A DNA stretch of 64,000 nucleotides from Cyanophora paradoxa CCMP329 (GCA_004431415.1 QPMI01000435.1:265196-329195), one strand, 5' to 3'. Numbered from the stretch's first letter, positions 21,400 to 64,000 are shown. Notes: generated by a model from the sequence alone, not told the origin. Made by a program: numbers and translations.

Positions 21400-22391
21400 T
21401 AGTACGTCCGACCGTCGGACGGTCGGAGTCGCGAACGGACTCGCGAGTCGATCGATATCCAATCATTTGAATGTTCACGATATCGAGATCGAGACTCGAC
21501 TCACTCGAGAGTGACTCCACTGACTCGTCAGTGACTCGCGAGCCTCGGAGTCGCGACTCATGGTCGAAAACTTAGCTTGAAAATCGCGAGTCTGATCTAC
21601 TGTAATTCGGATAATATTTAAGACCCCAAATTAGTAATCCCGGGGTTTGGTCGGTTTAGTTGGCTGAAAATAATACAGAGTTGGCCGCGCGGAGCGCTTT
21701 AGTAGCGGCCTTTAGAAGGGGGTGGGCGCGGCGCGCGCTAGGGGGTCTAGATCTGTTGGAGGGTCCGGGAGCCCCCTCGCACTACAGCTAGCTTCTTCCG
21801 CGCAGCAACCACGGCTGCGCTACGTACCCCCCCTCGCACCTCAGGTTTAGTATACGATAAAACTTTAGTAGTCGTGCCTCAAAACTTTGGTACTGTAATT
21901 ATAAAGACTTGCGGTATACTAAATGTTTCCTGTACGATAAAAACGTTGGTATATAATATTTTTCCCGACTTGCAGTATCATAGTATATCCAGAGTCGCGA
22001 GCTCGAGTGACCGTCGGACCCGGCAACATATATATTAATCGATATATTATAAATTATAATCGCCGGTCGTCCGGCGTCGCGCGCGGCCTGGCCGGGGCCG
22101 CCGGGCGGCCGCGCCGGGCGGCGGCCGCCGCGGGCGCCGGTGCCGTACTGCCACGGTCTAGTACTGGTATTATCAGTGGTGTATATAAGTGGGCCTTTGT
22201 GAAGCGTTGAGCTCTCGAGCTTGCCCCTTCGCTGTCAATGCATTGTTAACCCTCGGAGGTTGCATGAGTCACGCGTCGCGGAGGTTTGGGTGTTATATTG
22301 CGATCAGGTACACGCTGCACTAACAGGGGGGCTAGCACTAACCGACGCGGGGAGTAACAGCCGGTGTACCCCTCGGGGGGCCTCCCGGCCT

Positions 22392-23902
22392 CTAACGATG
22401 CTCAGGCTCTAACTGAATGCTGTACCCCCCGCTGTTACTGCCCGAACCTTCCGAACTTGCGTAATTCGGCCTCGCCCTGTACCCAGTGGCTGGTGTCGTC
22501 CATCCATTCGCGTACCTCCCTCTGACGCTTGAGTGACTCACGCTGCTCGGGGGTAGGGGAGGGGGGCCTTCGAGGCGGGGTGGGGAAGGGGTACGGTGGC
22601 AAAATTCAGCCACTCGGGGGTATGCCGAATTCGCCGTGAACGATCCTCTGCGGTGTGAAATACCGGTCGCTGCTCACGGCCAAGTGGAAGAACGCGCTCC
22701 TGAGCCCGGAGAGGAAGCGTGGTTGCATGAATGGCTGCTGGAGGGACTCGTCGCGCCAGGGGGCTACGAAATCAATGATACGCTGCTGTACCTGCGCGGG
22801 CAGGGCAAGGATCTGGCTCTTGCGGTTCGCAAAGGCCGTCCACAGCGCTTGCAGGTCGGCCCAATCGCCGTTCAGATCCCTGCGTTCGCGCCTCAGGTAC
22901 GATCTCGGGTTCTCTGTCATACCCATCAAGCCCGCGGCCCTGATCATCTCCCTGTCCGGGAGCTCTCGCTCGTCGTGGAATTCGTCTCTAATCCAGCGCA
23001 CAAGGTAGAGCACGCGCTCCATGAAGTTCTCCGCCGGCGAGCCGCCCCTGAGGACGTGCGCCTCCCCTCCAGCACTGCGTTCGCATCCTCCAAGTCCACG
23101 TTCCGCTGTCGAATCTCCCCGTCCAGGTCGCCGTTGTTGTACAGCACGTCGGACTCGCGTGTTCGCGCCATGCTCGCGGCTCGGTGAGAATTTATACCTG
23201 TACCCCTACTCGCGGTCGGGGTACCTGTCGCCGGGCATCAGCCTCGCGCGCTTCCGCATCTCCGCCTCCCCGGGTAGCCAGTTCTTCGGGTCGTTGCTCC
23301 ACTCCTCCCATTCGCGTATGTCCCGTCTGACGTCACGCGGGGCGGGGGCGTTTATCGGTGGGGCGGGCGGGGCTGGCAGGGCCTGGCGCGGGGGTTGAGG
23401 CCCCTGTTCCACGAGTACTCGGGGTACTCTTCCCATCCCAGGGGTACCAGATTCATCGGAATTGGCTCAACTTCGAATTGGGCTTTTTGACGTGATAATC
23501 ATAGTTTGTGACATACGCCGTCACAGCCGAGCGCAAGCGCGAGAGGTCGCGCAAATTTACGTCGTCCCATTGCGAGTCCCTTGCCTTCGCGTACCACTCG
23601 AGGATTTGCATGCGAATGTGGTCCGGGAGGGTCGAGAGTATGCTGAGCTTGGAGCCCAGGGCGAACCAGATGCGCTTGAACTCGTCGATAATCCTGCCCT
23701 CGTCGTGGCTCCGAACGTAAAGGGCCCCGCCAGAGTTGTAATGCGTGTCTAGCCACCCTGCCCGGGCCAGCTCTAGCACCGGCCAGGGTTGGCGCTGTCG
23801 ATTCGGTCGCGAGGCCTGCTCTACCACCCAGCGTCTAAGGTCCTTGACCTGATCTATGAACTGTGCGATCACGTCCCTGGGCGCTTCCTCTGCATCCGAC
23901 AT
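22392..23902 (-). CDS. Viral hypothetical protein with an internally duplicated helical domain (several frameshifts)
   Basis: Chain of abutting minus-strand ORFs (23453-23902, 23206-23436, 22944-23171, 22606-23022, 22392-22613); two similar blocks; ATTTCT motif upstream. Confidence 0.55.
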
Positions 23903-23952
23903 TTGCAATTGCACACATCAAGAAATTCTAAACGCTACTGCGAGGCTACGCT

Positions 23953-24608
23953 ATGCATACCGATACAAATTGCGAGACTTTGCAACAGGGGAGCGCAGCG
24001 TGGCACGCGGCGCGCCGTGAAAAACTAACTGCATCTAATTTTGCGGCTGCGTGCGGCATAAACCCCTGGAAATCCAGGGCCCGCCTGTGGGCGGAGCTAA
24101 GCGGGATAGCGGAGGAAAACAACTTTGACAACCCTGCCCTAACCTATGGGCATGACTATGAGCCCTCGCGGTCTCTCTCTACAAAACGTCGAACAACAAC
24201 GTGGACGTGCAACATACTGGATTGCACGAACATAAGGAACTGCCCTTCCTGGCGGGCAGCCCGGACGGGCTGATTGGAAGCGATCGTATACTTGAAATAA
24301 AATGCCCCTACAAACAAGAACTCTACGAAAAGGTCCCAACTTATTACATGCCCCAGCTCCAGGGCCTGCTGGACATAACGGGCCGCGAGTGGGCCGAACT
24401 TTTTTGCTTCACTCCTCTGCGCGTGCAAACGTGGTACGTCAGACGGGACGAGAGGTACATCGAGCTCATGCGGCGGTGCTTACATCTATTTTGGATGCAC
24501 GTGAAGGCTGGAACTCCGCCCGAGCCCTACAGCGATCGAATGAAGTCAGAGAACCTCAGCGAGGAGCAGGCGGCGCTGCGCGAGTTTAAGTCGTACGCCC
24601 TCCTCTAG
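23953..24608 (+). CDS. YqaJ-like (lambda exonuclease family, PD-(D/E)xK) viral nuclease; one frameshift at ~24165
   Basis: QGSAAWHAAR..LTAS, YGHDYEP, FLAGSPDGLI, LEIKCPY, YMPQLQ motifs. Confidence 0.92.
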
Positions 24609-24945
24609 TGTCCCGACCCTCTCAGATATTAATTTAAAGATCTGGGAGGGTCGGGACACGTCTCTTGGTCAGACTACTTATGTACGCCCTCCTCTAGTGT
24701 CTCGACCCTCTCAGATATTAATTTAAAGATCTGGGAGGGTCGGGACACGTCTCTTGGTCAGACTACTTATGTACGCCCTCCTCTAGTGTCTCGACCCTCT
24801 CAGATATTAATTTAAAGATCTGGGAGGGTCGGGACACGTCTCTTGGTCAGACTACTTATGTACGCCCTCCCTCCTCTAGTGTCCGGACCTTTCCAATAAT
24901 CTATAAAGAAAGTAGGGAGGGTCCGGACACGTCTCTTGGTCGGAC
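24594..24945. repeat. 89-bp tandem repeat x4, each unit containing a ~50-bp hairpin with AT-rich loop
   Basis: Units start at 24594, 24683, 24772 and 24861; stem GTGTCCCGACCCTCTCAGAT / ATCTGGGAGGGTCGGGACAC, loop ATTAATTTAAAG. Confidence 0.95.
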
Positions 24946-25223
24946 TCACCGTAGCTTGGTGTAGCTCAGGCCCAGGCGGGGAAGGCGAGTCTGCAATGAA
25001 TCAGACCCCACAGGATTTGGTTGAGCTGCTCTTTGCAGGGGGGCAGGAAGGCGGCCGCAGAGGGCTAGGGAGACTAGATCTAATTAGTAATCCCACACCG
25101 CGCATGTGCAAGCGACAGAGAACGAAGTGAGTAAATGCAGATCGATGATACGGCAATCATGAGTTGTTCAGAAAAGGTCGGGACACATAGAGAGTGCATG
25201 CCCTCACTCTCGTCCGCCCTCGC

Positions 25224-25277
25224 AATGTCCCGACCCTCCCAGATCTTTAAATTAATATCTCAAAAGGTCGAGACATT
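25224..25277 (-). repeat. Inverted copy of the AT-loop hairpin
   Basis: AATGTCCCGACCCTCCCAGATCTTTAAATTAATATCTCAAAAGGTCGAGACATT. Confidence 0.92.
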
Positions 25278-25376
25278 CATTGATCATATGCATGACGTCA
25301 CTTGAATTCGCACGTTCGTATTTACACACTGGCACGCGCATCCCGTTCGCGAAGTCCACACTGTGACATCCGACAA

Positions 25377-28300
25377 TCACACGCGCCTGTGAATGAGAGC
25401 ATAGCAGTCGGAGAAAACGTTGTAAACCTCTGGGAAGCTTGGCGCCATGCCTGCCCTTGCCTGCTTAGCCTGGCGCTCTACTGCGTCGTCGAGCATGTCT
25501 TCCTCCCACGTGATGTAGCGTCGCTTTCGGCTGCCCATTTGCCCTCCGTCCGCGTCGGAGAAAGCGCGTCTCACTCCGAGGTACTTCTCCAGCAGGTACT
25601 TGATGACTTGCCAAGACTGCTGCGAGAGCCGCTTCTTCTCACCGTCCGCTGCATCGAAGCGGGGCGCGCGCTCGTCCAGACTCTGCAGAGCCGCGTACGC
25701 CTCCCGACCCTCCGGCGACGCCAGGGCCGCGTAGGCTTCGTCCGACCACAGAGCACGCCCCGCGAGCTTTCCATACCCCCGCCAGCCGAAGAGTTTCTTG
25801 AACAGCGCGACGACCTTCGATACCTTGAGGCGCTCAGCAGTAGGCACGATCTCGGCAACGTCCGCGCCATGCTTCAGCACCAGCGTGACCACGGCAGTGA
25901 GCGGGATGGAGTAGAACGAATCCCACATCCAGGCGACGTCTCCTTCGGTCAGCTCGCTCGGATCCTTGGCCAGGAACGCGGCGATCGACGTGCGAGCAAG
26001 CGAAGCAACCTTCTCGATGTCCAGCTTAGCGAGAGACTCGCGGGACTGCCTCCAGGCCAGCACCGTGCTCCACAGATCGACGGGCTCCAGCGCGCCCGCC
26101 TCCAGCACGCTCCTGATCTCGCGCAGCCGCTGCTCCTTCTCCTGCTTCGGTCCGCTCGGGTTTTGATCCTCCGTGACTTGCACGTTCATCAGCGCGCAGG
26201 TCGACATCAGCCGCAGGCGCGCTGCCACTGCGAGGCGCCGAGTGGGCATGCCGGCGCGGCGGCTCCCGCGGTGGCTAGCCTTCAGGTCCAGGTAGCGCTG
26301 CATGTCGTCCGAGCTCTCGTCGTCGTCGCTCTCACGCCAGTGCGCAGCCGCCGCGCCGACCGCAACCGAGGGCGTCCGGTTCTTGCGCACGGCGACGAGC
26401 AGGTGCTCTCCGTCGGGCGTGCTGCGTTTGCGCAGCCTTCTGACTCGAAACAGCAGCTGCACGATGTCGTCCGCCTCCAGCTGCGCGGGCTCCGCCTGGA
26501 ACACGCCGTAGACCTTGTCAAAGTGCGCGTCCGAAAAGTCCACGCCTGCCCCGAGCGCGGAAGTTGCGATGAGCACGTCGCAGGCCTTGTACGCGCCCTC
26601 CTCAGACACATCGATCGACACGATGCGCACTGGGCCCTCGTTCGTGAAGCGCACGCTCTTCTCCTTGGCCTGCCCAACGATGAGCCCGATCGTGAACGGT
26701 GCGCCGCTGCCGTCCTCGGGCCCTGCCTCGAGCTGAGTCACGTACTGAGCGCCGCCCAGGCTGAGCTGCTCCAGCGCCTGCTTCGCAATCTTCTCCTGCA
26801 GCTCGATCGCCTTGGCCGGCGTCTCCGCGATGATCATGGCCCGCGAGCGCCCAGGTCGGCACTGCACCATGATGTCCGCCTCGACGTGCGCCGGGCTGTC
26901 TGACACGCGCATCTTCCAGTCGCAGGTGCGATGCGAGTTGTACAGGAGCCCCAGGCGCGCCCCGACCTCCTGCGCCGACTCTGCCAGGTACGCGAGATCG
27001 ACCGACCGAACGAAGCCGTCCATCGCCACGATGCGCGATGCCTTCATCACGCCGCGCCATAGGCCCACGCAGCGCGCGTTTCGAGGCACTGACCGCATAC
27101 CTAGGTGCAGGCCGGTGGGCTCGAGGGTGCCGCTCGAGGTGAGGTGCTTCGTGAGGGAGGAGAGCTCGTCCAGCACGACCAGTAGCGGCGCCGTCGACCA
27201 GCCCTCCCAGTCCTCGAGCACCTTGTGCAGCGAGTCCCATGTGATGACGACGCACCTGCACTCCTCATGGCGGAAGCCCCACTTGCCATGCGATCCCTTT
27301 GAGCTCTCCGGTGGCTTCTTGATGTCCATGTAAAGCACGGCGTCCTTTGACAACTCCGCAGCATCAATGCGACGCTTGAGGTCGCGGGAGAAGGCCCGGC
27401 GGCAAGTCACGAGGATCACTCGCCAGCCGCCTGCGAGGGCCGGGTCCAGGTACGCATCGATCAGCGCCTGCGTCTTCCCCGTGTTGAGTCCCGAGCAGAT
27501 GACGTCGACCTGCGGCTGAGCGGATCTCGGGTTCTGCTCCAGCGCCCCGAATGCGGAGGTAAGGATCTTGCACGAGAGGTGGCGTTCATCCACTGCATTG
27601 ACGCAAGCCTCCAGGCCCGTCGACTCGAGCGCGATCAGGAGGGAGGGGAGGGCAATGTCGAAGGCGACAGGCTGCGAGGGATCGGTCACATAGCGGGTCT
27701 GTGCCACGCTGCCCGACTCCCCTCCGGTCCCCTCCCCTCGAGCTCGACTTCAATACCGTGCGCCTGGATGGAGATTCGAGCCGCCGGCGCCCCCGGCTGA
27801 CTCCCGCCCAGGACGAGGGTGATGGACCCGTCGGGCTCGACTCCAAGGTGCTGAACGCGGCGGGCGTCGTGCAGGCCAAGGTCCGCGCGCAGCTCTGCCC
27901 CCGCCTTCCAGATCTCGTCCCTCACCGCCTTGTTCTTGCGCAGGCGGTCCAGGAGCCGCTCCAAGGCCGGCAGGCTTGGGCTCGAATCCAGGAGAGCGCC
28001 CGGCTCCGGGATGGGCTTAGCGCGGGGCGCCGAGCTTCTGGATGGAGTGGGGAGGAGCTCCGCTCGCGGCCCGGGCGCCGGCCCCCGCAGAACGTAGCCC
28101 CCGTGCCATCCACACCGAGCTCCAGGCCGCTCGAGCTCCCAAAGAACCATGCCATGAGATCGCAAGCCTCCGGGCTCTGTAGGACGTAGGCAGCCTTGAA
28201 TCCATTATCCAAGGGGCGAGAGAAAGTGAAGCCTCCGAACTTGGTTGCAAAGGCGCAGGCTGCCGCGGTGCTCGTCTCATCCTCGGCACCCGAGAAGTGG

Positions 28301-28497
28301 CTGGGGGTGATGCAGGGCGGGTGGAAGACGCAGAAAGCCGTCCCCAGGGTCGGGCTGCAGGCCTTCTGGACTTCGACGAGAGGGAATCGAACGAAAAAGC
28401 TGCACTCCTGCTCGCTCAGATCTATCTGCTGTACCCCGGGCCCGGGCATACGGGCCAGGAAGGCGTCGACGTCGAGAGACACGCGTCCGGTTGCCAT
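25377..28497 (-). CDS. Origin-binding-protein (herpes UL9-like) SF2 helicase; N-terminal part joined through about two frameshifts
   Basis: SGLNTGKT Walker A, ILVTCRRAFS, VITWDSLHK, LVVLDELSS, RIVAMDG, DVLIATSALGAGVDF, QLLFRVRRL in ORF 25377-27707; upstream overlapping ORFs lead to ATG at 28497. Confidence 0.82.
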
Positions 28498-28586
28498 GGT
28501 CGTCTCTCTATAGCTAGGCTTGGAAAATTCTAGATCTACTAGGCTAGTCGACGTCTGTTGGCTAGCTATAGTCGACGTCTGGACTG

Positions 28587-28724
28587 CTGTCTCGACCTTC
28601 TGAGATATTAATTTAAAGATCTGGGAGGGTCGGGACAGGCTCTGGTCCGTCTGGATCCGGACTGCTCAGCGGCTGTCTCGACCTTCTGAGATATTAATTT
28701 AAAGATCTGGGAGGGTCGGGACAG
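28587..28724 (+). repeat. Two further copies of the AT-loop hairpin (86-bp spacing)
   Basis: CTGTCTCGACCTTCTGAGATATTAATTTAAAGATCTGGGAGGGTCGGGACAG at 28587 and 28673. Confidence 0.95.
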
Positions 28725-29699
28725 GCTTTGGTCCGACCTTAAGCGCTCAACTAGACCCGGTTGACACCGTCTTGATCTCTCCTTCTTGGCGCAGCGGACG
28801 ATGTGACGCGCAGACCGTCGGCCCGGCGGACGGGGAGGCGCGCGCGTAGAACTTCGGAAGCGCTAGCCCCTTGCTTGACCGAAGCTTAGAAAGTTTTGAG
28901 CGCACGTGAATGCGACACGTGTAGAGAGAAGGCAGAGCGCGCCGGAGCTAGCTTGCGCGGCCGAGCGCTCGACCGCCTTTGCTCCTAAGCTCAGAAAGTT
29001 TTGGGCTCACGCGGTTGCTCCACGTGTTTCGACTCAAAACACAGTACCCCAACCCGAAAAAAAGCGCCCGGGCAGCGCATCTCGCAGCGCCCGGGCCCAG
29101 CGCTCCTTGCAGCACTTGCCAGAGGCACTAGCTTGCATTCCGCTCAGCCCGGAGAGCCGCCGCCTCGCTCCTTTCGATTCGGAGGTGCGCCTCACTTCGC
29201 AACCTCTTTCTCCGCACCACGGCTAGCTCCGGACCTCAGATTTTGGGCGCTGGAAAGCTCTCTCGACGCCGCACTCACGCCGCCACGCGCAGGGTCGCTC
29301 GCGCCGGCCGCGGACCTTCGAAAGCTCGATGGCGCCCGAGCCGGAGCACTCCGCCGCATCCCGCAGGTGCCAGCTCGCTCTCTTGCCGCTCTATCCCTTG
29401 CATTTAGCACCTAGAACATGCCCCGCAACCTCGCGCTCGATTCGCCCGCGTCCGCTGACATTTGGTCTCTGAGCAGGTGCCGAGATTGGCCGCCGCGCCT
29501 TCCGCAACTCGAGCCGACGTTCGCGGCGACTTGCGCACGCTTCTAGATCTCGTTCTCAAGCCCGCGCATCGATTCGGCGGCTCCGGCTCGCCTCCCCGCG
29601 CCTCCAGCCCCGCGCCCCACACCCGTTCTTGTCCTAGCTAAGCCCTCCCTTGTCCGCGGCCAGTCGCGGGCTACGCGCATCGCGGATAGCATCAGTGGA

Positions 29700-31023
29700 G
29701 CTACGTTTCAGCGCTGGACGCAGGCCCGCCCGCCCAATCCCTCCCACCTCCCGCTCGCAGCACGCTCACTGGGCCGCAGGCAGCTTCGCGGGGAGCCGCT
29801 GGATTCGAAGCCGCGCACCTTCCCCGCCCGTCCCGACGTCGTACGCGCTAACGTCGCCCGCGCCGCAGGTGGCCGCCAGGCCTCCTGCATCCAGGCCTTC
29901 GAGCCGGTGTGGCTGCGGGAGAAGCGCCTCGGCTTCTGGCAGGAGACGGCCTCCTGTCCCCTCACCCGCTTCATCATCGCCCACTGCGCCGTCGACCCCA
30001 CCACCTTCCTCGTCGGCTCGGAGACGGAGGGCTGGATGACGAGCGTCGCGGGCATCGTCGAGTACATCGCGCGCACGGAGGGCCCGGACGCCGCCGCCGC
30101 CGTCGCCGCCGACGTCGAGAACGGCGAGCTGGACGAGACCATCGCCGCCTTCGGCCCCAGGTGCCGCCTCTTCTCCTACAGGGCCGGCGGCATCTGGCAG
30201 ACCTACATCCGCGGCATCGTCCCCAAGGCCCCCCTCTCCCTCGGCGAGAGCCAGCCGGCGCTGGAGGCGATCGCGATCCCCGTCGCCCAGTTCAAGGACC
30301 CGGCGCCCGACGTCGGGCCCTTCCTCGTCAAGCCCCACACCAAGGGCAAGGGCAAGCGCACCCGCAACTCGGCGCCGGCCTTCCTCCCGCCCCAGCCCCC
30401 GCCACGGCCCCCCAGCAGCGCCCCGGCCAGCAGCGCATCGACGAGATGCTGCCGCGCCAGGTCCGGCCCCGCGTACCCCCGCCTTCCCTCCCGTACCCCC
30501 CTCCCCCCGCCCCCCTCCTGATCCAAGGGCAGGGTACCCCGACGAACGGCGGCGCGGGCCCGAGCGGCTACGGGAGCTCGGCCTCCTCCGCGAGCGCCGA
30601 CGGCCCCAGCCCCCTCCCCGGCCCCGGCGCCATCCTCAGCGCGATCATGGGCTTCGGGGCCCAGCAGGAGGCCGAGCGGCGGGCGCTGGCGGCGCGCCAG
30701 GCGCGCGAGGCGGAGGAGCGGCGCCAGGCCCTCTGGGCCCAGCGCCTGCAGGAGGCCACCGCCTTCCGCGCCGAGCTGGAGGCGGGCTTCCGCGCGGAGC
30801 GGATGAGCGCGGCGGAGGCCGTGGAGAGCTGGCGGGCGTTCGAGGACGGACCGTGGAGCTGGCGAAGGGCCTCGGCTACAGCTACCGGCGGGCGCCGGTG
30901 CCCACCTCGTACGCAAGGCGGGCGGCGCGCGAGGCCTCGCGGGCAAAGATCGACGCGGCGGAGGAGCAGGCGGCGCGCGAGGAGGCCGAGGACAACGCGC
31001 GCTTCCGGCACCTGCACCACTGA
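29700..31023 (+). CDS. Viral hypothetical protein with a possible winged-helix DNA-binding region, Pro-rich linker and coiled coil (frameshifted; start uncertain)
   Basis: Strong GC3 codon bias; PLTRFIIAHC...TYIRGI loosely resembles the C-terminal wHTH of D5-like proteins. Confidence 0.45.
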
Positions 31024-31071
31024 GGCCCGAGGCGGTATTTTTTCTCAACCCTCCCTCAATTCGGTCCCGCG

Positions 31072-31260
31072 ATGGCCTTCGAAGCTTATCCTGCCCACTA
31101 CTCGCTAGGAGCCCTCGCCGCGACCCTCACCTGGCTCCTCGGCGGCACCCCCACGGCCTCGGCGGTCATCGGCGTGGGCTTTGGCTACGCCGCCAAGAGC
31201 CTCTACGCCCCGGCTGCGCCTCGCAGGCGGCGGCCGGCATGCGCCCCGCCGGGCGCTAAC
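31072..31260 (+). CDS. Small membrane protein (3' end uncertain)
   Basis: Hydrophobic N-terminal segments; TTTTCTCA motif upstream. Confidence 0.5.
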
Positions 31261-31354
31261 TTTTCAAAGTTCATTCTCCCCTCCCCCTTTTCCGAGTTCC
31301 GAGTCCGTTGGCGTTCCCTTTTAAATTTTCTTCATTCTCGTTACACGTTCGAAG

Positions 31355-31831: not shown

Positions 31832-31867
31832 ATAGTTTTTCGAAACCCGGTTGGAAGCTAGCCAAGG

Positions 31868-52500: not shown

Positions 52501-55500
52501 ATGTCGATGCTCGACGACCCCTGGCGCATGGCCATCCCGAATCCGGACGAGGTGCTGAACGGCGCCTTCGCGATAGACGGGAGCCTGAGCGTGAGGGGAA
52601 TTTACGCGGACGAGATAAGGCTGCGCAAGGGCGCGACCTACAGCGATTTCCTGACGTCCGTCGGTACCTTGGACGATTACGGTGACCTCACCGCAATTAT
52701 CAAGGGGCTCTGGGGCGTCACGACCGAGACGGGCGTGGACTGGAACATTATTAAGAGGGCGGCCGACGTGAAAATCGCAAACTCCGTTACAGCGAAAGAC
52801 GCCACCCTGAACCTCGTGAAACTGACTCTAAAGGGCGCAGAGGGGACGTGAGGCCCGGGTACAACGCACTCGAGCGCATCGCGGGCCCCCTGCGCCACAT
52901 CTACTGGAGCCGCCAGGCGCTGCCGAGCATGGAGCCCGAGCAGTACAGGCGCGACAGGGAGGAGTTTTTCGCGTGGTTCGACCACTTCAAGGTGAACATC
53001 CGCGCCCTGAGCGCCGACAGGACGGGCGAGACGCCGGAGACGACGGGCGGGGGCCGCATCCCAACGGCACCCGACGTGCTCCCCGATCGCTCAGACTGGG
53101 CGAAGACGCAGAACTGGGCGCTGAAGGACCACTTCCACGACGAGAGGTACGCCCTCGTCAAGCACCCGCATGTGAAGGCCGACATCACGGACTGGGCGCA
53201 CCGCCACCTGTACGACGACATCATCGGCGGGCCCAAGGTGCCGGGCGCGATTCCGGGTGGGGTACGGGCGGCGGAAGCACGGGAGGTGGGGTACAGGCAC
53301 CGGGGTGGGGTACAGGCACCGGGGGTGGGGGTACAGGCACGGGGGCGGAGGGGGCTCCAGTGGCACGCCCGTGGGAGGGGCGGGGGTAGCAGCGGCTCGG
53401 GTGGCGGCGGCTCGGGCGGAGAGAGCGGCGGAGGGGGTACGCTCGTGCCGATCCTTGGTACAACAACGGGAATCTTCGGCGCGGCCCTGATTGCAGGCGG
53501 TGCAAAGTACTACAGGGATCGGAAGGCGTACGAAAGGGACATTGCAGAGCTGCAGAAAGATAACAAAACGATCGTTTACTCAGACGAGCAGGTGAGAATA
53601 CTGGCAGAGGAGCTGAAGACAAGGGAGCGGCAATTTAACGAAATGAGGACAGCGGCCGAGAAAAAGATAGCGGACGATTTGAAAGAGGCGAGCGATAGAA
53701 TTGAGAAATCCCTGGAGGCCGAGGAGAAAGCCGAGATCCGGAAGAGAGAGGCCGATAGGATCGTGGAAAACGCGATAAGGGAGGCAAAGGAGCAGGCAAG
53801 GACCGAGCTGGAGAAACTGGACATGGAAATAGCAAACAAGGTCAACATAGCAAACGAGGTCGAAGAGGGCACAAAGATGCTGGACGATGAGCGAAAGGCA
53901 GCGGAGGAGCAAGCCAGAAAAGCAAAGGAGGATTTAAGGCAGCTCGAACTGCGAGAACAGGAGAGGCAGAAGGCAGAGGGGCTCGCATCCACCATACGAT
54001 TCAACCTAGAGCAGCAAGTGAAAACGCTGACGGCCGAGCTGCAGAGGATAGGGACGGCTGTGCCAAGGGGCACAATGGAGACGCAGACGACGCCAAGGCC
54101 CGATCCAAGGCCGGCCGCCGAGAGGCTGCCCTTCGCGCGGCTGGGTAGGAGCGACCAGGTGGAAGAGCTCATTGGCCTCACGCTCGAGGATCAGAGGGCC
54201 CTCTTCGACGCGTTAGAGCAGCGGCGCAGGGCGGACGAGGAGGCAGCTGCCAAGACAGAAGAGGAACGACTGAAGGCAATGCAAACTGCATCAGACGAGG
54301 AATTTGCACGGCTGGAGGAGCCGAAGGTAGCGGAGCGTAAGCGACGACTGGAGACGTTCAGGGGGGCGCAGATGGATTTTTACCGCTCGGAGCTCAAAAG
54401 ACTGAAAGAAGGAAATGCATCGGGGGACAGGCTCCGCGCCATGGAAGAGAACATGCGCGACTTTAGCTACGTTATGGATCAGCTGACGGGAAGGGGTCAG
54501 AAAGACGCCGAAGAACTGAGGAGAAAGATGGCCGATGAGAAGTGGAAAAACTTTGAGCGTCAGGCTGTTCAGAGGCCCATCAGCGATGCCATCTGGATAG
54601 CATACGGCGACGTGGAGGAGATGCACAGAGAACTGCGGACGGAAGCGAGCCTGTGGCGGGGAGCCCTCGAATGGTCACTGTACCGGATACAAAAGGGGAG
54701 TTTTTGGCAGAGCTGCGAGCCAATCCGAAAACGGTGAGCGCGGGCGCACAGAGCGCGTACCTCTCCATGGTCGATTACGTGGGCAAGCTGAGCAAATTTT
54801 GGGAAATGCGAAGAGCCATCATTCCAGCGGAGGGGCTCGCGCAGTACGATGCCATGGTGCGCGATCTGGAGGCCTTCAAACGTGAGCACCCACCCGCCAA
54901 ATACAAGATTCACATAGATACGACGGCATTCATGGGCGATCTAAGGAAGAGAGGAGACGAGGCCAAGAGTCAGATCGAGGAGCGCTACAGAAAGGCCAAG
55001 CGGACAAGGAGTACGCAAACAGGGTGATCGAAGAGCGGAAGCAGCAAGCCAAGGAGAACGCGGCGAGACGCAACGCCGAGATAGAAGAGCAGAGGCGGAA
55101 GATCGCAGAGCGCAAGGCGGCAGAGGAAGAGGCAAGAAAGACCAAGGTAGAGACAGAGTACCAAGCATTGAAACGGGAGGCCAATCAAATATTAAAACGA
55201 AGGGAAGGCGTACGCCGATGAGGGCGCGGCGTCGGCTTGGCCAGCCCAGACGACATCACACTCGCGAGAGGGACGACGTTTCCGTGGAGGAGATGCGCCG
55301 GGCACCGCCGCCTGCCTCCGAGGGCGTGTTTCAGACGCTCGACAGGCGCGTGATGGGCGACTCGGACGTTATTTTGCGCAACGCCCTCATGCCCTACGGC
55401 GACTGGAACCGCGCCACCGCCGACGCCCTCGCCGATTTCGACCTCGAGCGATTCACCACCAAAGAGCAGCGCGACGCGTACCTGGGGCGCCCGAGGGCAA

Positions 55501-57593
55501 GGCGGCCCGGGGTGGCCAAGGAGGCCCTCAGCGCCGAGACGCTCTTCTCGGCGGCGGGTACGGCGAACAACGACGGCATGTCTTTCGGGGCAGCCGATTT
55601 ATTTCAGGGGGCGGGCATCGACTTGGTGGGCGCCGGGCTCGGGGGTACGGGCTCGCGGGCCATGCGGCGGGCGGGCGCGGCGGCGGCGGGCCTTGGGCTG
55701 GCGACGGCCGGCGGCCTGCTCTCGGCCTACCAGGCGCTCTCGCAGGGCAAGATAGGGGAGGCCGAGTTCTTCGATACGTTCCGCGATCAGATGATCATGA
55801 CGGTCGGCTCTTTTGGCCTTCAGACGGGCATGTCGTCCGCCCTGAGCGCCCTCACGAAAATGAGGATCGGCACGGTGGGCGGACTTGGCCTGTCCATCCT
55901 CGCGGGCGCCATCGCGCAGGTGATCGTGGATATCATCAACGGGCGCAGCGCGGAAGAAATCGTGAAGAACTTTTTCAAGTACCCCGTCGACTGGGCGACC
56001 GACACCATACAGTTCATCGCGGAGCTCTCGCAACAGATCTACGACTGGGGCGTCGAGACGTGGGGCGACGAGGCGAGCCAGCTGCGCAACCGAATTAATC
56101 GGCTGGAGGGCGAGCTGGGCTCCGGATTTTTGGGTGTGTACGACCCTCGGAGGCGCGCGAAATGGCCTCGCTCTTGGCCCAGGAGCTGCGGTTAAACGAA
56201 ATCAAGGAGCCGAAGGAGCTGCAGGCCTTCATTCGCGCGCTCGACAACAGCATCAACGATTACCGTACCCCAAGGACCAGAAGACCCTGCTCGAAATCGA
56301 TCGCGCGACCGTGCTCTTCCTCTCCCAGCTCACCGTTAAAATGCAGGAGGGCTTCGGGTCGACTTCGCTCGCCCTGAGTCGACTTATGCGCGACCTGAAG
56401 CAGATGATAAAGGAGGAGACCAAGGGGCGGAAGCGCGTCTTAATTGCCGTCTACCAGGAGGGCCTCAACAGGATCAATCACATCGAAGCCCTAAGGCGCG
56501 AATTCGGCTCGGCCATCCGTCACTCGGGCGTCTCGTCGAACGGAGGGGCGCAGGTGGCCCGCCTGGCGGACGCCAACTCGCGCCTCGAGATTCCCGGGAC
56601 CTTCCGCATGCAGGATTGGTGGGAGGCCGAGGCCTTCAGGAATTACGGGGCCTTCATAGACAACGGGATCAATTCGCAGAGCCCCAAGGCAAACTGGCTG
56701 GTACCCAAGGCCTACGTCGATAAATTGGTTGACAGGCCTGCAGCACCATACACCAAGAAGATCGCCAAAGGCATCGAGTACTGGGCGCCCGAGCCAGGCC
56801 AGCCCGTGTTTGCATCGCAGAACTACGAGTGGCACATGGCGCCGGGGGCGAGCCAGGCCGTGAGCACCGTGGGCGTTGCCGTGCCGCAGCTGGCGACGGT
56901 GGCACACACGGGGGCGTATGCAGATCTCAGCGGGAGGCCGACGATACCCGTGATACCAACAACGTGGGCGTGGGATAGCATCACGGGGAAGCCGAGTACG
57001 TATCCCCACGCAGACCACCAGCACACCATCTCTCAGATCAGCGACTGGACGGCCCCGGACTTGACGAACATCTCCGTGGATTGGGACAACGTAACGGGCA
57101 AGCCACTTACCTTCCCCCCCTCTACACACAGTCACAATGTGTACTGGGATAATGTCATCGACCGACCCACTTCCTTCCCACCCTCTACGCACAGTCACAC
57201 AGAGTACTCGCTCACCAGCCACGGGCACAGAAACGTGAACATGGATGCGTACATAACGCACGGCACGTCCTTCCACTCCTACGCTGCGTACACGGAGTTT
57301 AACATCAATTCAACATACACGGTGACGTTCAACATTACATTCGGACAGGCGTACGACACTGGAGGCGGACTGGGGACCCCAGCAAACCCAACGCCGGTTA
57401 TTAACGTAACCCCTCGTTCGACATCAATCCCGGCGGCAGCACGGATGTCGATTTCTACGGGGCCAACGTCACGGCGGTGAGTCACACTGGCTTTACAGTT
57501 AAAGTGAGATTCCAACCCAGAATGACGGTCACGCCCACCCAAATTGTCCAGCTTTTTATTCATTGGACCGCGATCGGCAAGCTGCTTATGTAA
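52501..57593 (+). CDS. Very large structural protein (about 1700 aa if joined): His-repeat, Gly linker, long coiled coil, hydrophobic segments, C-terminal tail-fibre repeats
   Basis: Overlapping ORFs 52501, 52848, 54653, 55024, 55218, 56134; HxH..DITDW, TGAYADLSGRPTIP and W..ITGKP.TFPPSTHSH fibre repeats; could be more than one gene. Confidence 0.6.
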
Positions 57594-57617
57594 TCGATTT
57601 TCTGATGCAATCCAAAA

Positions 57618-58681
57618 ATGTCGGTCGCTGTCCCTCTATTTACCTATGCTGCCAGCGTGAATCACAAGGGCGATCACACGATTAAGGAGACCACCCTCGG
57701 AAACCAGGCCACCGAGGCCCCTACAACGCCACGGCCGTCCCTTTTCCGAGGCCGACCTCGTCCGCGTCGGCGAGCTGCGCTGCGACAAGATGCGCACGCG
57801 GGAGGGCGGGTCGGCCGTGCCGGGGCGCGTGAGGACGCAGAGGCTCACCGTCACGAACGGGGCCTGGGACGGGAGCGGGTACACCACGAATCAGGTGACC
57901 TTTAATGGGACTGTGAACGGGGAGGGGAATGCGGCTCTGTATGTGCAAGGAGGCGGAGCAAACGTGGTGGGGGGCTTAGGGTGAGCGGGGCTTCAAACTT
58001 GGCGGGCATCGTTACATTGGACGATAAGCTGCAAATTACCGGAACGTCACCGTACATAAATGGCGGTGGTTCAGGCGTAGCTATAAAGTACAACGAAAAC
58101 GATAGACTCCTCTGTGGGACTCTTGGCGTTGGTGTTACAGGTACTCTATTTACCTCGGCAATCGAAGGCCCTACTAATGGCCTAAGCATAGCAAACACTT
58201 CAATCGTTGATAGCGGAAGCGTCAGCGTCAGCTCTGGTCTATCCTTGAGAAACAACGGCACCGAACGACTGCTGTGCGGAACCGTCGGCGTTGGCATCAC
58301 GGGTCGGCTCATCGTCTCGACGCTCACGGGCGATGGAAACCGAGCCGTTTATTCGGATGCTCAAGGATACCTGACAAACTCGTCGAGCGATAGCCGCCTG
58401 AAAGAAAATGTCGCGAGCATGTCGGGCATTCTCCCTCTTCTGCTGCAGCTGAATCCCGTGTCGTTCACCTGGAAGAACACATCCTCGGGGGTTCGAAAAC
58501 GGATTACGGTCTCATCGCACAGGAAGTCCAAGGCGTCTTCCCGAGTCTCGTTTTCGAGAACGCGGATGGATTTCTCGGGGTAAACTACGACAGGCTCATT
58601 TCCCTGTCGTTGAAGGCAATTCAGGAACTTTCACAAGAAGTTCAAACTCTCAAAGACCAGGTAGCGGCACTGGCGAGCTGA
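57618..58681 (+). CDS. Fibre protein with C-terminal peptidase S74 intramolecular chaperone domain (frameshifts)
   Basis: SSDSRLKENV..L.QLNPVSFTWK, then in shifted frame YGLIAQEV..VFP.LV..GVNYDRL..LKAIQEL. Confidence 0.85.
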
Positions 58682-58701
58682 TCTGGAACAACTAGGAATA
58701 A

Positions 58702-60837
58702 CTACACCGCGAGTATCACAATTCGACCGTTGCCACCGTCGCTGAAAGACGAGCCACCGTTGCCGCCCCTACCAATGCCTGCTGCGTAGTGAGCGTCTCC
58801 GCTATTTCCTGCCACCTGGCCGGACCCAGGATACACCGTAGCATCCGTCAAGTTTCCTATGTAGCTCGAGCCACCGCCACCTCCAAACATTCTTGCTATT
58901 GGGTTCTCTGACACTCCGCTCCTGCTGGACCCAGAGCCTCCACCGAAGTAACCACCACCACCACCACCACCGAACCTGTAGCCGCTTGAATCAGGCCCAG
59001 TCTCTCCACCTTGGCGCAAAGTTCCCGGGTTGCTGGGCCTGGCCCCTGAGGCCACAACACCGGCTCCGCCAGCGGTTTGGGTGCCTCCTTGAGCCGGTAT
59101 CTCTCCGGTTACTCCAACCAACCCAGCCGCACCACCGGTCAACCCCCGCCTACTCCCCCGCCGCCATTCGAATCACATGTACCCCACCTCCGGCCCCTGC
59201 AACAACCAAGTCGGTCCCTGCAACGCGCTGAATTGCAGAACGACCACCACCGGCGCCGTTTTTGTACTCCGGATCGACGCTATGGCTCCAGCCCCTTCCA
59301 CCACCTCCGTAGACGGTAGCAGTGGCAGTCCCCGATACACCCTTTGGGCCGCCGCATCCAACAACAAGGATGAGCGTCTCCCCGAGGACACAGCCAATGT
59401 ACCAACTACGCAAGCACCCGCGCCTCCACGGACCCCCGTACCTGCGCGTTCTCCGCCTCCACCCCCGGCCGCCCATACGATGACACGCACAGCCACAGTC
59501 CCCGTTGGTACTACGAAAGTCTGGTCGGCCCCGGTGTAGGAGAATGTACCCAAAACAGGAGCGTTTGCAGTTGTTGCACTGGCAGACGAGGACTGAGGGC
59601 CTTCCTCGCCGATCTGGTTGACGCCCTTGATGGTGTAAGTGTAAGTGGTTCCGTAAACGGTCGTTGTGTCCGAAAAGGGGCTGCTCGTGTCGCTGGCAAG
59701 GAACACGCCACCCTGTAGATGTTGTAGGAGACGGTGACGCCCGTCACCGGCACCGACCACTCGAGCACAACAGGCTGTGCTGCCCCCGCCGCGGGGGTTG
59801 CAGTGAGCCCAGTGGGCGCCCCCGGGTCCGTGGTGACGTACGCCGCAATACTCTTCGGCCCCTCCCCTCCCGTGTTCGTCGCGGAGATCTGGTACTCGTA
59901 CCCTGTACCCCAGACGGTGGTCGTGTCGCTGTAGGAGTTGGTCGCGGAGTCTGTGAGGTAGGCCCCGTCTCTGTAAATCTTGTATCCCGTCGCTCCCGTG
60001 GACGCAGTCCAGCTGAGGCTGACAGGCTGCTGCTGGTCGTTGGGTGCTGATGCCGTCACGTTCGTGGGGGCGTTTGGCATAGTCCAGACCAGGAGCGGAT
60101 CGGACTTGTCGTATTCGACACCGCCCACGATGCCGGCCACCTGGTAAGAGTATTCCGTGCCCCACGTAAGAGCAGTGCTATCGTCAATGTACGAGGTAGA
60201 CAGGGCACTGCTCGCAAATCCGATTGGCGTACCGTTCCTGTAAATTCGAATCGAGTCCGCGCCCTCCATGGCCACCCAGTTGATTGTGACGACTATGGCG
60301 GGTTTCGGGAAGCCCGAAGACGCGGGGCCGCCCCCGGCAATAAAATCGCCGTAGGTCTGGGCCGTGGCGGTCGTGAGCGTGGTGTAGGCTTCGATCTGCG
60401 GGCTGAAGCCGCCTATGCCTTGGAAGAGAATGTAATTGCTCATGGCACCCTCGTGGGTGTAGAGAAGCGACTGTGCGTAGGTTGTGGGCGGGGCTTTGCC
60501 ATCAGAGCCCGTGCTGCTGCTGCCCTGTTCGCGAACCGCCGCCACGCGGTAGAGTCGCTGGCCCCCAAACTAAAGGGAGAGTCCGTGTAGGTGACGGTTG
60601 GCGCATTCACCGTGGCCACGAGATCCCAGGGGCCGTTGATGCTGGTCGCCCTGTACACCTTGTACTTGACGGCGTTGGTGACCGCGACCCAGTTCAGCTG
60701 AAAGCCGTACGTACTGTTCCGTTGTTGAGCACGGAGCCCGATCGCACCTGGGGCCTGCCCACAGTCAGCGAGATCGGCTCCACGCCATACTGCGGAGCCT
60801 GCACCACCTGCTTTTTCACGAATACGAAGCGGGGCAT
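58702..60837 (-). CDS. Fibronectin type III repeat protein with C-terminal glycine-rich domain (frameshifts)
   Basis: LSWTASTGATGYKIYRDG, YEYQISATN..GEG FN3 repeats; FSYTGADQTFVVP..WAAGGGGG..GGGRSAI..GGGGGSSY..GGNGRIVI. Confidence 0.82.
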
Positions 60838-60875
60838 TTTCCTCTACGATCCGAAAAAATATCTGCCCGGGGTAA

Positions 60876-61555
60876 ATGACTTCCAACTGGTACCAGACCC
60901 TCAGCGGCTCACTTGACGTTGGCAACAACACCAAGGATTTCGCACGCATACCCTCCGGCAGTTACGTCGACGTCTTTCTGCAGAATCCCGTCGTGATTCA
61001 GGTCGTTCAGAACGCCTACGCCACGCCCAAGATTTATTCCTACCAGCTCTTCTTCGACCCTCTGAGCCTCAGCGCAGAGGTTATCGAGCTGCTGCACGAA
61101 TCAGGACTCGTGAAAAAGGTGGCACCTGCCACGGCCACTGCCAACGTCTTGCGCTGTCTCGAGGTCAAGTTCAGGGAGACGGGGTACGGCCCCACCGTGA
61201 ACCGGTACCCCAGTTCTTCGAATCTTCCGGGTACGGGAACTTACCAGATGAGGGGTACGCTCAAGGGCGACGTGCTCTTCACGAAATTCAATCCAAGTCC
61301 CGCGACCCTGGGGGCCCTCTACACGGGCGGCAACCCACGCGGCTCGACTCTACCCGCTTCCCCTTCACCTTTTTCAGGTTCCAGGTCTTCCCCCTCTCCT
61401 ACGCCGCCGACCAGCCCCACTTCAGCACGGGCGCCAGCCTCTGCGCGGAGCTGCGTGAGTGCTCGATTTCCTACGCGTACGGCACCGACGCTGACTCTGT
61501 GCCTGGGGCCCGCGTCATGAACATCGGTGGCGACATCACCCTCTTTCACGGATAA
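60876..61555 (+). CDS. Beta-rich hypothetical structural protein, paralog 1 (frameshift)
   Basis: VFLQNPVVIQV and LRCLEVKF blocks shared with the next gene. Confidence 0.55.
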
Positions 61556-61578
61556 TCTTTCTCATTTGAGGTCGCAAA

Positions 61579-62389
61579 ATGCCGACCACCTCGGCCACCA
61601 TCGTGAAGACCGTGTCTGCCGGCTCGATCGTCCCCGATTTCTACGGCAACGCTGGGAACGTGGCCAACGCAGGGACGGACAAGGTGGAGTGGGACGGAAA
61701 CTACGCCACCCCGCTCACCGTGAGGGTCCAGAATCCCGTCATGTTGCGCGTCACCTCCAACGATTTCGAGAATCCCGCCTCCTGCTCCGTGTACGTGTAC
61801 TTGACATCGACTCGGGCGTGAGCGCGGATGAGGCGGAGGCGCTCTGGCTCTCGGGCCTCCTGAAAAAGATAGAGCCCTCTGTGCCTGATCGGCCCGCCAT
61901 TCGCGTGCTCGAACTCAAGTTCACCGCTAACACCGCCCTCACTCGCAAATTCGGGAATGGTGCGAATCCGAACATCAAAACGCATTTAGATGGCGCCCTC
62001 ATCGATGCCACACACAAGACCACGCAGGCCGTTCCCTTTGAGATGTACAACCTCTGGAAGATGACCGCAAAGGAGATGATGACGAATGCCACCACGGGCG
62101 GCGCCTCGGGTACCGATTATTCATACGGCGCCTCGAATCCCGTACCCAGGTCTGGCCCCGGCTCCTCTTCACGAAATTCACTTTCAAATTGTACAACAAC
62201 ATCGCCGGAATGCCTACCTCTGGAATGGTCGTGGGCTCTACCCTCATGGCCGAACTAATTGAGGCAGAGGCGGACTACACGACTGCGACTACCAACTCGA
62301 CAGCGCCAGGCGCCGGAGCCGAAGTTTACGTGGCCTGGGAAACGGTTGGTCGCGAGTACGACACCAAGATTCACACCACTAGCGTCTAG
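61579..62389 (+). CDS. Beta-rich hypothetical structural protein, paralog 2 (frameshifts)
   Basis: VRVQNPVMLRV and IRVLELKF blocks; overlapping ORFs 61579-61821, 61527-62258, 62189-62389. Confidence 0.55.
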
Positions 62390-62394
62390 ACTGG

Positions 62395-62739
62395 CTAAGC
62401 TGCATTAGCGCCTGTGCCGCCTCCATCATCTCCCGAATCTCCTCGCTCTTCTCCTGTAAATTGGCGTACCCCTCCTCTTCTTGCGAATATCCGACATTGA
62501 TGCCAGCGCAGGTTCTCCTCCTGTAGTCCAGCGGGTTGCCGTTGATGTGTTCCACGTAGCGTCCACGTGGCGACTTCCCGAGGATCAGTTGGAGAGGTAG
62601 TGCTTGCGCCCTCCAACGTCTTGCTCACCCTGTCCCTGTCCACTCTCCAGGGAAACTCCAAGGCACTCGGGGGTACGTCCGAGTTGACCAGGACGTTGTA
62701 GGCGACGTCTTGCGAGTCGGTGCACCGGAGCAGGGCCAT
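62395..62739 (-). CDS. Hypothetical protein, 114 aa
   Basis: Intact ORF; upstream TTTTTCTGA. Confidence 0.55.
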   Translation of the reverse strand: MALLRCTDSQDVAYNVLVNSDVPPSALEFPWRVDRDRVSKTLEGASTTSPTDPREVATWTLRGTHQRQPAGLQEENLRWHQCRIFARRGGVRQFTGEERGDSGDDGGGTGANAA

Positions 62740-62760
62740 TTTGCCCTAGGTTCAGAAAAA

Positions 62761-63273
62761 CCTGGGACTTGGGACTTGGACTTGGGACTTGGGACTTGGG
62801 AAGAGTTGAAACCCAGGTCCCGGCCAGACTTTCTCCAGGATCAGAAATTTGTCAGACAAGTCAGGTGAGTTTTTCTACCGACTTTTTTACTCCTACCACC
62901 CCTCGTACTCTTTTTTACTCGTAGTCTTTTTACTCGTATCCCATCTCGTACCCTCTTCTCTCGACATCTCGCACGAATACTCCTACCCTCTTCACATCTT
63001 TTTCGGTTGCATACTCTCGTGAGCTTTCATGTCCAGTATCATGCTACAAGTCGTACACCAGTTCAGACTCTACCTCGCTTGAAATCTCACCTGGAATGTC
63101 ACCAGAAACGTCGTATCCAAATTTCCGTACCCTTTCTAAGTCTGCCCGGTGGTTAGGGACTTGGCACGGCAAACTCTCAGATCCAGAGAAAGTCTGGGCC
63201 CAGACCCTGAGTCTAACTCTTCCCAGTCCCAAGTCCCAAGTCCAAGTCCCAAGTCCCAAGTCCCAAGTCCAGG
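62761..63273. repeat. Imperfect ~95-bp inverted repeat pair with GGGACTT heptamer arrays
   Basis: 62761-62853 versus reverse complement of 63168-63273. Confidence 0.9.
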
Positions 63274-63342
63274 ATCGCGCCAAGTCATAACTGAATAGTC
63301 GCCAATTTTACAAGTATGTACAATGGAATGACGCAATACTAT

Positions 63343-64000
63343 TTACAGCATCTCAAAGTCAGAATCATCGTCATCGGAAACCAAGTCAATCGGGCCTCGG
63401 GCGCGGACTTAAGGGAATGCGGGGAAGGGCCTGCGCTGCTGCACTAAGTCCTGCCGCTCCTGCTCGCGCTGCGCCGCAAGGCCGCTGCCGCCTCTGCCTC
63501 GCGCCGCTGCTGAGCCTCGACGCGCGCCCTAAGTTCCGCTGCCTCCTTCTTCTGCGCTCGGCAATCTGGCCGCGTCACTCGCGACGAAGAAGGCGCTCGT
63601 GACGCAACTTGCGCCGGAGTTCGGCCATTTCGCGCTTGCGATGATGCGCTTCTCATGGTCTTGACGTCTGAGTCAGGCGCTTGCTGAGTGTGACGTCACG
63701 CGAGAACGGGCAATGCCGCGCCGAGCTTCAAGTCTTTTCGTGTTCCTTGGCGGGATTCTTGACTCGCTCGGAGTTGTCGGTGAATGACGTGGTCTCCATG
63801 AACTTCTTCTTGACGATTGACTTGGTCTGATAATGCGGCGCTTGCGAGTCGGGTTTTCGTTGTCGCCTTCAGAGTCGAAGAGGACTCAGAGTCGTATGGA
63901 ATCGGCACGTCAAAGTCGATAAAGTCGTTGATGTCAGACTCGGCGTCAGAGGCCTCGGACTCGGCGTCATCGACTGGCTCGGGAGCGGGCTCGGCGACGG
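63343..64000 (-). CDS. 3' part of an acidic/coiled-coil protein gene running off the window (frameshifted; viral or host unclear)
   Basis: Acidic stretch, KKEAAELRARVEAQQRREAEA, ends PIDLVSDDDDSDFEML-stop. Confidence 0.4.

Follow-up and report, generated by a model that had tools for sequence, protein, structure and literature searches.

A 64,000-nucleotide (nt) stretch from the glaucophyte Cyanophora paradoxa CCMP329 (GCA_004431415.1 QPMI01000435.1:265196-329195; hereafter the window, over which all coordinates are counted) contains a mriyavirus-like element of about 41 kb. We consider it probable that this element is a recently spread, transcribed, gamadvirus-related mriyavirus that is likely integrated, would be replicated as a rolling circle by a host polymerase and was likely inserted by its own HUH endonuclease. 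The original prediction, made from the sequence alone, had described a near-complete, endogenised genome of this class; neither the high copy number nor the transcription and its antisense splicing had been noticed, nor had the palindromes or the variant capsids.

The element occupies 22181..62760, as delimited by a depth step, contig ends and an upstream motif; its left edge lies at 22,181-22,211 and its right edge may pass 64,000. Its length is at least 40.5 kb, or 41.8 kb up to the end of the window, and Mriyaviricetes genomes are defined as spanning 35-45 kb. Between about 22.2 kb and 62.7 kb or beyond, genes are densely packed and free of coding introns, and the short-palindrome signature of the host falls off past 22.2 kb, being also missing from 63.3-64 kb. 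A T-rich motif lies 12-36 nt upstream of 27 of the 35 starts against a background of 3.4%, a contrast inflated by the post-hoc definition of the motif; the last gene that bears it starts at 62,739 on the minus strand. No terminal repeat was found within the window. The near-complete genome predicted to reach 64,000 is thus supported as far as this last motif-bearing gene, and its right end may lie further on.

Pfam was scanned with 141 selected pieces of open reading frames (ORFs) and 28 more; 353 stop-to-stop ORFs of at least 70 amino acids (aa) exist. The 141 pieces matched YqaJ (23932-24605, two frames), a UL9-like helicase (Herpes_ori_bp, 25380-27749), Capsid_N (39711-40514), Pox_A22/RuvC (44136-44666), Pox_A32 (44859-45935), Pox_VLTF3 (46698-47507), DUF5767, DUF5679, Peptidase_S74 and fn3. 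Together with gamadvirus hidden Markov models (HMMs) and HUH motifs, these matches confirm the predicted set of major capsid protein (MCP), A32 ATPase, VLTF3, RuvC, single-stranded DNA-binding protein (SSB), YqaJ, SF2 helicase and two HUH endonucleases. No family B DNA polymerase (PolB), RNA polymerase (RNAP) or integrase family was matched by the selected pieces of the window (141 + 28 in Pfam, 29 in PHROGs), in agreement with the absences first noted.

The A32 packaging ATPase is intact (44868..45938, plus strand; Pfam, relatives and trees) and is followed by a small ORF (46350..46694, plus) conserved at this position in gamadvirus loci, with matches in 9 of 101 loci (best E 2e-6). VLTF3 (46695..47521, minus; Pfam Pox_VLTF3 E 4e-10, gamadvirus HMM E 9e-38) is frameshifted and its start is uncertain, and a RuvC-like resolvase of the Pox_A22 type (44133..44609, minus) is recognized by both Pfam and the gamadvirus HMM. 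An HUH endonuclease in three frames (47752..48592, plus), with motifs II and III present, precedes HUH_long (48614..50643, plus; about 675 aa), which has a C-terminal HUH domain with the invariant H, H, Y and K. Both HUH domains carry H-x-H and Y-x-x-K and are matched by gamadvirus HUH and HUH_long. The PDDEXK/YqaJ nuclease (23953..24608, plus; gamadvirus HMM E 9e-31) is split by a 1-nt indel near 24,162, and the N-terminal part of the UL9-like SF2 helicase (25377..28497, minus; Herpes_ori_bp E 1e-8) lies in other frames. The SSB (35922..36704, plus; gamadvirus HMM E 5.5e-25) is of the gamadvirus PEV_26 type, and its profile has 64 matches in gamadvirus loci and 0 in five nucleocytoplasmic large DNA virus (NCLDV) loci. 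The MCP, a double jelly roll protein matching Capsid_N, spans three frames in the window (39143..40511, minus). Around it on the minus strand lie a DUF5767 protein (36758..37576; Pfam, gamadvirus HMM E about 1e-30 to 2e-30) that corresponds by gene order to Mriya_48, a weak PEV_20-like protein (37590..37919; 17 bits against 7.5 for the best shuffled sequence), a Mriya_51-like protein (37942..39063; E 4e-7) and a weak Mriya_1-like piece (41638..42045; 15.5 bits against 6.4 shuffled, E 5e-4). All Mriya_ and PEV_ labels follow from gene order relative to the numbering of Pleurochrysis sp. endemic virus 2 (PEV2).

For phylogenetic placement, 80 ATPase loci were drawn from IMG/VR, nine of which were taken as gamadviruses, and the PEV2 ATPase was added. 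The window ATPase is 37-47% identical to those of gamadviruses and 30-32% to those of five NCLDV-like loci; the gamadvirus ATPases are 54-80% identical to that of PEV2. In trees that included no Yaraviridae (FastTree, 64 rows after removal of near-duplicates; IQ-TREE, 23 rows), the window ATPase and a relative, P0008, branch as a deep sister to the gamadvirus clade, apart from the five NCLDV loci and outside the gamadvirus crown. Gamadvirus family HMMs match the SSB, DUF5767, PDDEXK, RuvC, VLTF3, MCP, Mriya_51-like, PEV_20-like and Mriya_1-like proteins, and the SSB, DUF5767, Mriya_51-like, RuvC and YqaJ profiles match gamadvirus loci, with no match in the five NCLDV ones. Among the PEV_ genes looked for beyond the SSB, the matches are limited to the PEV_20-like gene (17 bits) and a marginal PEV_34-like one (11 bits). 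HUH and HUH_long stand in tandem, in the same order, in 6/6 gamadvirus HUH loci, one of which is cut by a contig end. Traits of Mriyaviricetes present in the element include an NCLDV-type MCP, VLTF3, RuvC, PDDEXK, an intact-motif HUH, an SF2 helicase and Mriya_48/Mriya_51/Mriya_1. The proposed mriyavirus affinity is borne out by the gene set, by its order and by the tree of the ATPase, and we place the element beside, not inside, 'Gamadviridae'.

Copies, left junction and transcription

Of 7,992 candidates, 347 proved to be relatives of the window ATPase, with EukProt models nearest to it. The leading cluster, which bears the name Cyanophora paradoxa, comprises 18 members on at least 14 named contigs besides the window's own model; seven further near-identical models on seven more contigs bring the total to at least 21 other named contigs and confirm the link to this glaucophyte host. 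Most of the 22 C. paradoxa ATPase models aligned are 98-100% identical, and the lower values mostly go with gaps from gene-model breaks. C. paradoxa models likewise account for all matches of the helicase (10/10) and for every named relative of the capsid at more than 50% identity. Two ATPases from contigs of 3.4 kb (P0004) and 8.2 kb (P0008) are 88% and 71% identical, which indicates that the lineage is present in other data sets; among Joint Genome Institute metagenome contigs, 264 pattern matches to a Cyanophora-type ATPase yielded 0 confirmed.

In DNA-type runs (n = 14), 82-85% of the words from 21,000-30,900 are present. Read contigs were compared over the region 19,500-39,400 in two DNA runs (X1 and X9) and two RNA-type runs (X15 and X17). 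A 366-nt flank contig without differences from the window (21845..22210) abuts the element and has a depth of 108 in X1 and 190 in X9, while exact viral contigs have depths of about 2,400 and 4,000. This amounts to a ratio of 22.2 for X1 and of 21.1 for X9, with values of 18-35 across six contigs; the comparison of read depth with the host that had been proposed as a check thus places the viral contigs at about 21-22 times the flank in two DNA runs. One arm of an upstream two-copy inverted repeat has 1.5-1.7 times the flank depth, which fits a single-copy flank. The low depth of the flank contig indicates that the viral copies do not share this flank, and argues against joint duplication of virus and flank. 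A published C. paradoxa genome is described in its available text as likely haploid and as built from PacBio RSII reads with majority-rule correction (PMC6704402). The element is estimated to be present in 20-30 near-identical, recently spread copies, which at 41 kb each would amount to some 1% of a 100-Mb genome.

In both DNA runs the flank contig has no loose part and terminates where the element begins. Graph logic sets this edge at 22,181, if flanks merge, or at 22,211, if paths split, and X15 has a contig starting exactly at 22,211. The left junction is consistent with integration but is not strictly bridged by the contigs listed. The endogenised state first proposed is well supported, and the element is likely integrated in the nuclear genome. 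DNA joints with sides of about 30 nt (for example, 33752-33955 and 35577-35811) were set aside as unreliable.

Many genes of the window lie over two or three frames, with frameshifts in YqaJ, the helicase N-terminus, MCP, VLTF3 and both HUH genes. The window differs from read contigs by 77 indels; 11 of the 12 listed are a single base missing from the window, and 9/10 checked fall in runs of 3-5 identical bases. Long RNA-type contigs show 0 substitutions and up to 8 gaps (one of 1,886 nt has 0 and 8). An intact 456-aa capsid twin on another contig (P0162) is 98, 100 and 93% identical to the three MCP frames, and an observed/expected CpG ratio of 1.08 likewise speaks for errors over decay. The frameshifts are likely homopolymer assembly errors, although the intactness of this particular copy is not provable from read contigs because these pool all copies.

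A structural model of the intact MCP twin (pLDDT 75), made with an alignment that held NCLDV and gamadvirus MCPs, has its best Foldseek matches in the capsids of iridovirus, Paramecium bursaria Chlorella virus 1 and Emiliania huxleyi virus (E 1e-24), and matches a virophage capsid more weakly (E 3e-14). The second-ranked match in BFVD, A0A2H4YBA8, is an unnamed protein and was left out of account. By this model, the MCP is a predicted nucleocytovirus-type double jelly roll. In a phmmer search of 1.8 billion proteins, its matches are C. paradoxa copies and NCLDV-type capsids. C. paradoxa holds three full-length capsid types that are 55-67% identical, each lying five or six gene numbers from an ATPase about 97-99% identical to that of the window, a linkage taken from gene numbers only. 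This pattern of three capsid types beside near-identical ATPases is, from the gene models, an apparent capsid mosaicism.

The element is transcribed, with host-type splicing. RNA antisense to the helicase has four spliceosomal introns with GT..AG joints on the plus strand (26523-26583, 26988-27104, 27450-27498 and 27559-27614), which occur in X15 and X17, from two studies, and are absent from the DNA runs X1 and X9. Both X15 and X17 are taken as RNA on splice joints alone, not being so recorded. A further intron with a CT..AC joint (32866..32938, minus; X17 only) lies past the stop codon of ORF 33286-32945. Viral splice donors resemble those in gene candidates of the flank. Over 19.5-22.2 kb, X15 and X17 have hardly any cover or none, to which no weight was given. 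Some depth is present in 26 (X15) and 28 (X17) of 30 bins; contigs give no RNA level, nor strand beyond splice joints. The original prediction of intronless ORFs therefore holds for the coding regions, but not for the transcripts, which are spliced. ORFs in the spliced antisense RNA do not exceed 268 aa, which speaks against a hidden overlapping gene; this RNA could hold replication down, or it could be read-through with splicing at cryptic sites.

Replication, insertion and alternative explanations

Four tandem 89-nt repeats (24593..24946), each with an AT-centred imperfect palindrome of about 52 nt, form a candidate replication origin. A fifth, inverted copy lies on the 3' side of the helicase (25226..25275, minus) and two more upstream of it (28586..28737), so that seven palindromes stand on both sides of the gene (z -2.6 to -8.5, 7/7 copies). 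In their alignment 91% of cells pair, and 3 pairs differ at both positions, each of them in the copy that has diverged furthest. No palindromes of such strength were found in 17 gamadvirus loci (12 + 5), most of which fall short of the helicase. The helicase matches only the herpes origin-binding protein in the PDB (E 0.0015) and none of the 101 fetched loci; no primase domain was detected in it, and C. paradoxa helicases fall in classes of about 99, 75 and 50% identity.

Read in the light of Yutin et al. 2024 and of what is known of these protein families, the gene set suggests nuclear replication by a host polymerase, in which an HUH protein would nick at or near the AT-centred palindromes to begin a rolling circle. 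The UL9-like helicase, in place of the gamadvirus SF3 helicase, would bind or unwind at the palindromes, the SSB would coat the displaced strand, and RuvC and YqaJ would resolve concatemers. VLTF3 would drive the late genes (capsid, ATPase and fibre), and the ATPase would package the genome. Insertion may proceed via strand transfer by the HUH tyrosine. The tyrosine of HUH proteins can join DNA, as in Helitron- and adeno-associated virus-type integration, and such strand transfer is known from rolling-circle transposons. By this analogy it is our tentative choice of insertion route, with chances somewhat short of even, because no integrase is present and the element recently reached many separate sites. 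Repair-mediated capture of linear genomes and in-trans integrases of co-resident polinton-like viruses (PLVs) share the remainder; 366 polinton-like capsid hits are listed for C. paradoxa in the available text of PMC10120064.

Several observations weigh against the reading of a recently spread, HUH-inserted gamadvirus relative. Insertion by HUH is judged from one junction only, with no terminal repeat within the window and no terminal hairpin at the left end of the element (z 0.72). None of the contigs listed has at least 31 letters on both sides of this junction, which leaves it supported yet short of proof. Depth read from contigs gives a rough measure and has a single 366-nt baseline. The available text of Sarre et al. 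(PMC12344493) reports methylated giant-virus regions in C. paradoxa, with viral genes enriched among methylated, mostly silent genes; the RNA may therefore stem from a few copies. As to affinity, the grouping of the window ATPase with gamadviruses against NCLDVs has an ultrafast bootstrap value of 79 and an SH value of 0.86, with a very long branch. Of the phylogenies proposed as a check, that of the ATPase places the window as sister to gamadviruses; the MCP, 16-22% identical to all references, joins neither the gamadvirus nor the NCLDV group and has a long branch in a tree that took in no Yaraviridae, and none of its 24 phmmer matches is a gamadvirus-sized MCP. VLTF2 and Mriya_50 gave no match above shuffled controls and no hhalign support; according to the available text of Yutin et al. 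2024 (PMC11253617), both are missing from several Yaraviridae, and VLTF2 from Phaglo_G. The gamadvirus minor capsid protein (mCP, PEV_22) and PEV_14, 15, 27 and 35 were not detected by the profiles, nor did hhalign support an mCP candidate.

The high depth, the broad transcription, the failure to detect an integrase and the lack of a strictly bridging contig among those listed would also be expected of a persistent free (episomal) infection in which each cell carries 20-30 genomes and an assembly error links them to host contigs. This is unlikely: the depth ratio is nearly equal in two studies, the flank contig of both DNA runs stops where the element starts and has no loose part, models lie on 22 contigs with three capsid types, and embedded and methylated viral regions are reported for this lineage in the available literature texts. 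It is quite unlikely that the element is an inactive, leakily transcribed relic whose copies arose passively through segmental duplication or host transposons, given that it exceeds the single-copy flank depth about 20-fold, that ATPases are 98-100% identical and MCPs of three types full-length, that indels lie in homopolymers and that the HUH catalytic residues are kept. Such a relic would fit the many frameshifts of the window, the truncated gene models in other copies and a neighbourhood rich in repeats and mobile elements, and the antisense and post-stop splicing may be noise. The affinity could also be misjudged if a neighbouring lineage, either PLV-sized with HUH and Mriya48 (Zora/VC218-type) or a reduced nucleocytovirus, took up gamadvirus modules. 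The ungrouped MCP and the undetected VLTF2 and Mriya_50 point that way, and HUH-bearing neighbours exist; however, the available text of 10.64898/2026.06.19.733378, which describes them, gives Zora/VC218-type genomes as 20-30 kb and often with integrases. With at least 40 kb, no integrase detected, VLTF3, RuvC, a duplicated HUH, a gamadvirus-type SSB and conserved gene blocks in the element, this origin is very unlikely. Nor were traits of PLVs or virophages (rve or tyrosine integrase, protein-primed PolB) found in the pieces scanned, and the element exceeds 40 kb against 15-30 kb in those groups.

Beyond the recently spread, transcribed mriyavirus that we prefer, a wider reading would see an HUH-spread, integrase-free nucleocytovirus with 20-30 competent proviruses inducible to form particles, exchangeable capsid and helicase modules, control by antisense RNA and methylation, and a mapped origin, making it the first glaucophyte virus and the first temperate mriyavirus; as a whole we regard it as doubtful. 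With a multi-copy, transcribed mriyavirus in a cultured alga, experiments could address whether replication starts with HUH and on what sequence, how a nucleocytovirus without an integrase gets into chromosomes many times, and whether it is reactivated.

Remaining genes and the left neighbourhood

A candidate minor capsid protein (51529..51978, plus) has viral proteins as its atlas neighbours (score 0.87) but does not match the gamadvirus mCP profile. Coiled-coil, fibre-like ORFs with a terminal Peptidase_S74 chaperone domain follow (52501..58680, plus; PHROG tail matches E 8e-11, Pfam S74); within them, phage-like tail-fibre repeats and the intramolecular chaperone domain at 55966-58680 suggest a trimeric attachment fibre. 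A fibronectin-III repeat protein lies at 59511..60443 (minus; Pfam fn3 E 2e-9). Inside the virus, a 120-nt inverted repeat (33638-35028) with an internal partial copy (34048-34134) stands upstream of divergent genes and may be regulatory. Immediately upstream of the last gene that is clearly viral, a 500-nt segment lies between inverted repeats of about 86 nt (about 62.8-63.3 kb); it could be either a small insertion or the terminus. Frameshifted acidic ORF pieces without a Pfam match run off the window on the minus strand (63350-64000) and belong to the virus or to a neighbouring element.

The left neighbourhood consists mostly of repeats, including an 11-kb inverted-repeat element and the AT-rich end of a mobile element. 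The latter (1-890; GC content 0.38) is followed by a duplicated segment of about 190 nt; its ORF 3-500 has no Pfam support, and we take it to resemble the C-terminus of polinton/PLV rve integrases. The former (9573-20910; 11.3 kb) is foldback-like: its ends are inverted repeats of 1.4 kb (97.6%), and within it units of 202 nt and 145 nt form mirrored arrays on either side of three repeats of 350 nt. Direct repeats of 140 nt (92%) bound a 1.5-kb low-complexity segment (2210-3753), and six 146-nt units form a tandem array (5661-6544). Two host-type gene candidates (1470-2143 and 6700-7260) have GTRCGY..YGCAG introns (1552-1470 and 7153-7091), the first with a weak, sub-threshold Laminin_G_3 match. 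Of the spliced host genes and repeats originally described as neighbours, the repeats are thus borne out, while the spliced genes come down to these two small candidates.

Comparison with known systems

The element resembles 'Gamadviridae' (PEV2; available text of PMC11253617) in having HUH and HUH_long, SSB, PDDEXK, RuvC, VLTF3 and ATPase and no PolB or RNAP. The PEV2 ATPase (AUD57306.1) is 44% identical to that of the window over the trimmed alignment, and the gene blocks ATPase-VLTF3 and Mriya_51/PEV_20/Mriya_48 are common to both. However, the SF3_hel2 helicase of gamadviruses is not present, the element having instead a UL9-like SF2 helicase without a match in 101 loci. Its MCP has 456 aa, compared with mostly about 510-760 aa in the gamadvirus MCPs fetched, and its HUH_long about 675 aa, compared with 1,590-1,860 aa. 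VLTF2, Mriya_50, mCP and the majority of PEV_ genes went undetected in it, and its host is a glaucophyte. A UL9-related SF2 helicase is shared with the Yaraviridae that have SF2_hel, which, compared by description only, differ in an N-terminal primase and a single HUH (available text of Yutin et al. 2024, PMC11253617). An origin-binding SF2 helicase beside AT-centred palindromes also recalls herpesvirus UL9 and its palindromic origins, an analogy backed by sequence similarity for the helicases.

As far as its available text goes, the study of Yutin et al. 2024 that defines Mriyaviricetes (PMC11253617) names amoeba and haptophyte hosts, puts mriyaviruses forward as the nearest living kin of the ancestors of giant viruses, and gives rolling-circle replication only as a prediction. 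The host link put forward in the original prediction is not new: in their available texts, a preprint describes Mriyaviricetes regions embedded in an assembly of Glaucocystophyceae (bioRxiv 10.1101/2025.04.19.649669, Fig. 5f), and another a gamadvirus-like Phaeocystis scaffold (10.1101/2022.07.28.501842). This lowers the surprise of the bare link. The Glaucocystophyceae regions, of the same class and host lineage and likewise described as embedded, are very probably this element family; the available text of 10.1101/2025.04.19.649669 suggests accidental insertion for Nucleocytoviricota regions and says nothing of the number of copies, their gene anatomy, transcription, origin or mechanism. The texts consulted contain no printed account of the copy number, the transcription, the swapped helicase, the candidate origin or the capsid mosaicism, and figures, bioRxiv supplements and subscription papers may hold more; the host link is known, and the anatomy and activity are apparently new. 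The Phaglo-G NDDV of Phaeocystis globosa (Roitman et al., 10.1101/2022.07.28.501842) is, by its available description, likewise gamadvirus-like, found in an algal assembly, high in GC and fitted with a swapped helicase (SF3_hel1). It is, however, a partial 24.6-kb scaffold whose origin is called unclear, whereas Cyanophora holds many near-identical, transcribed copies.

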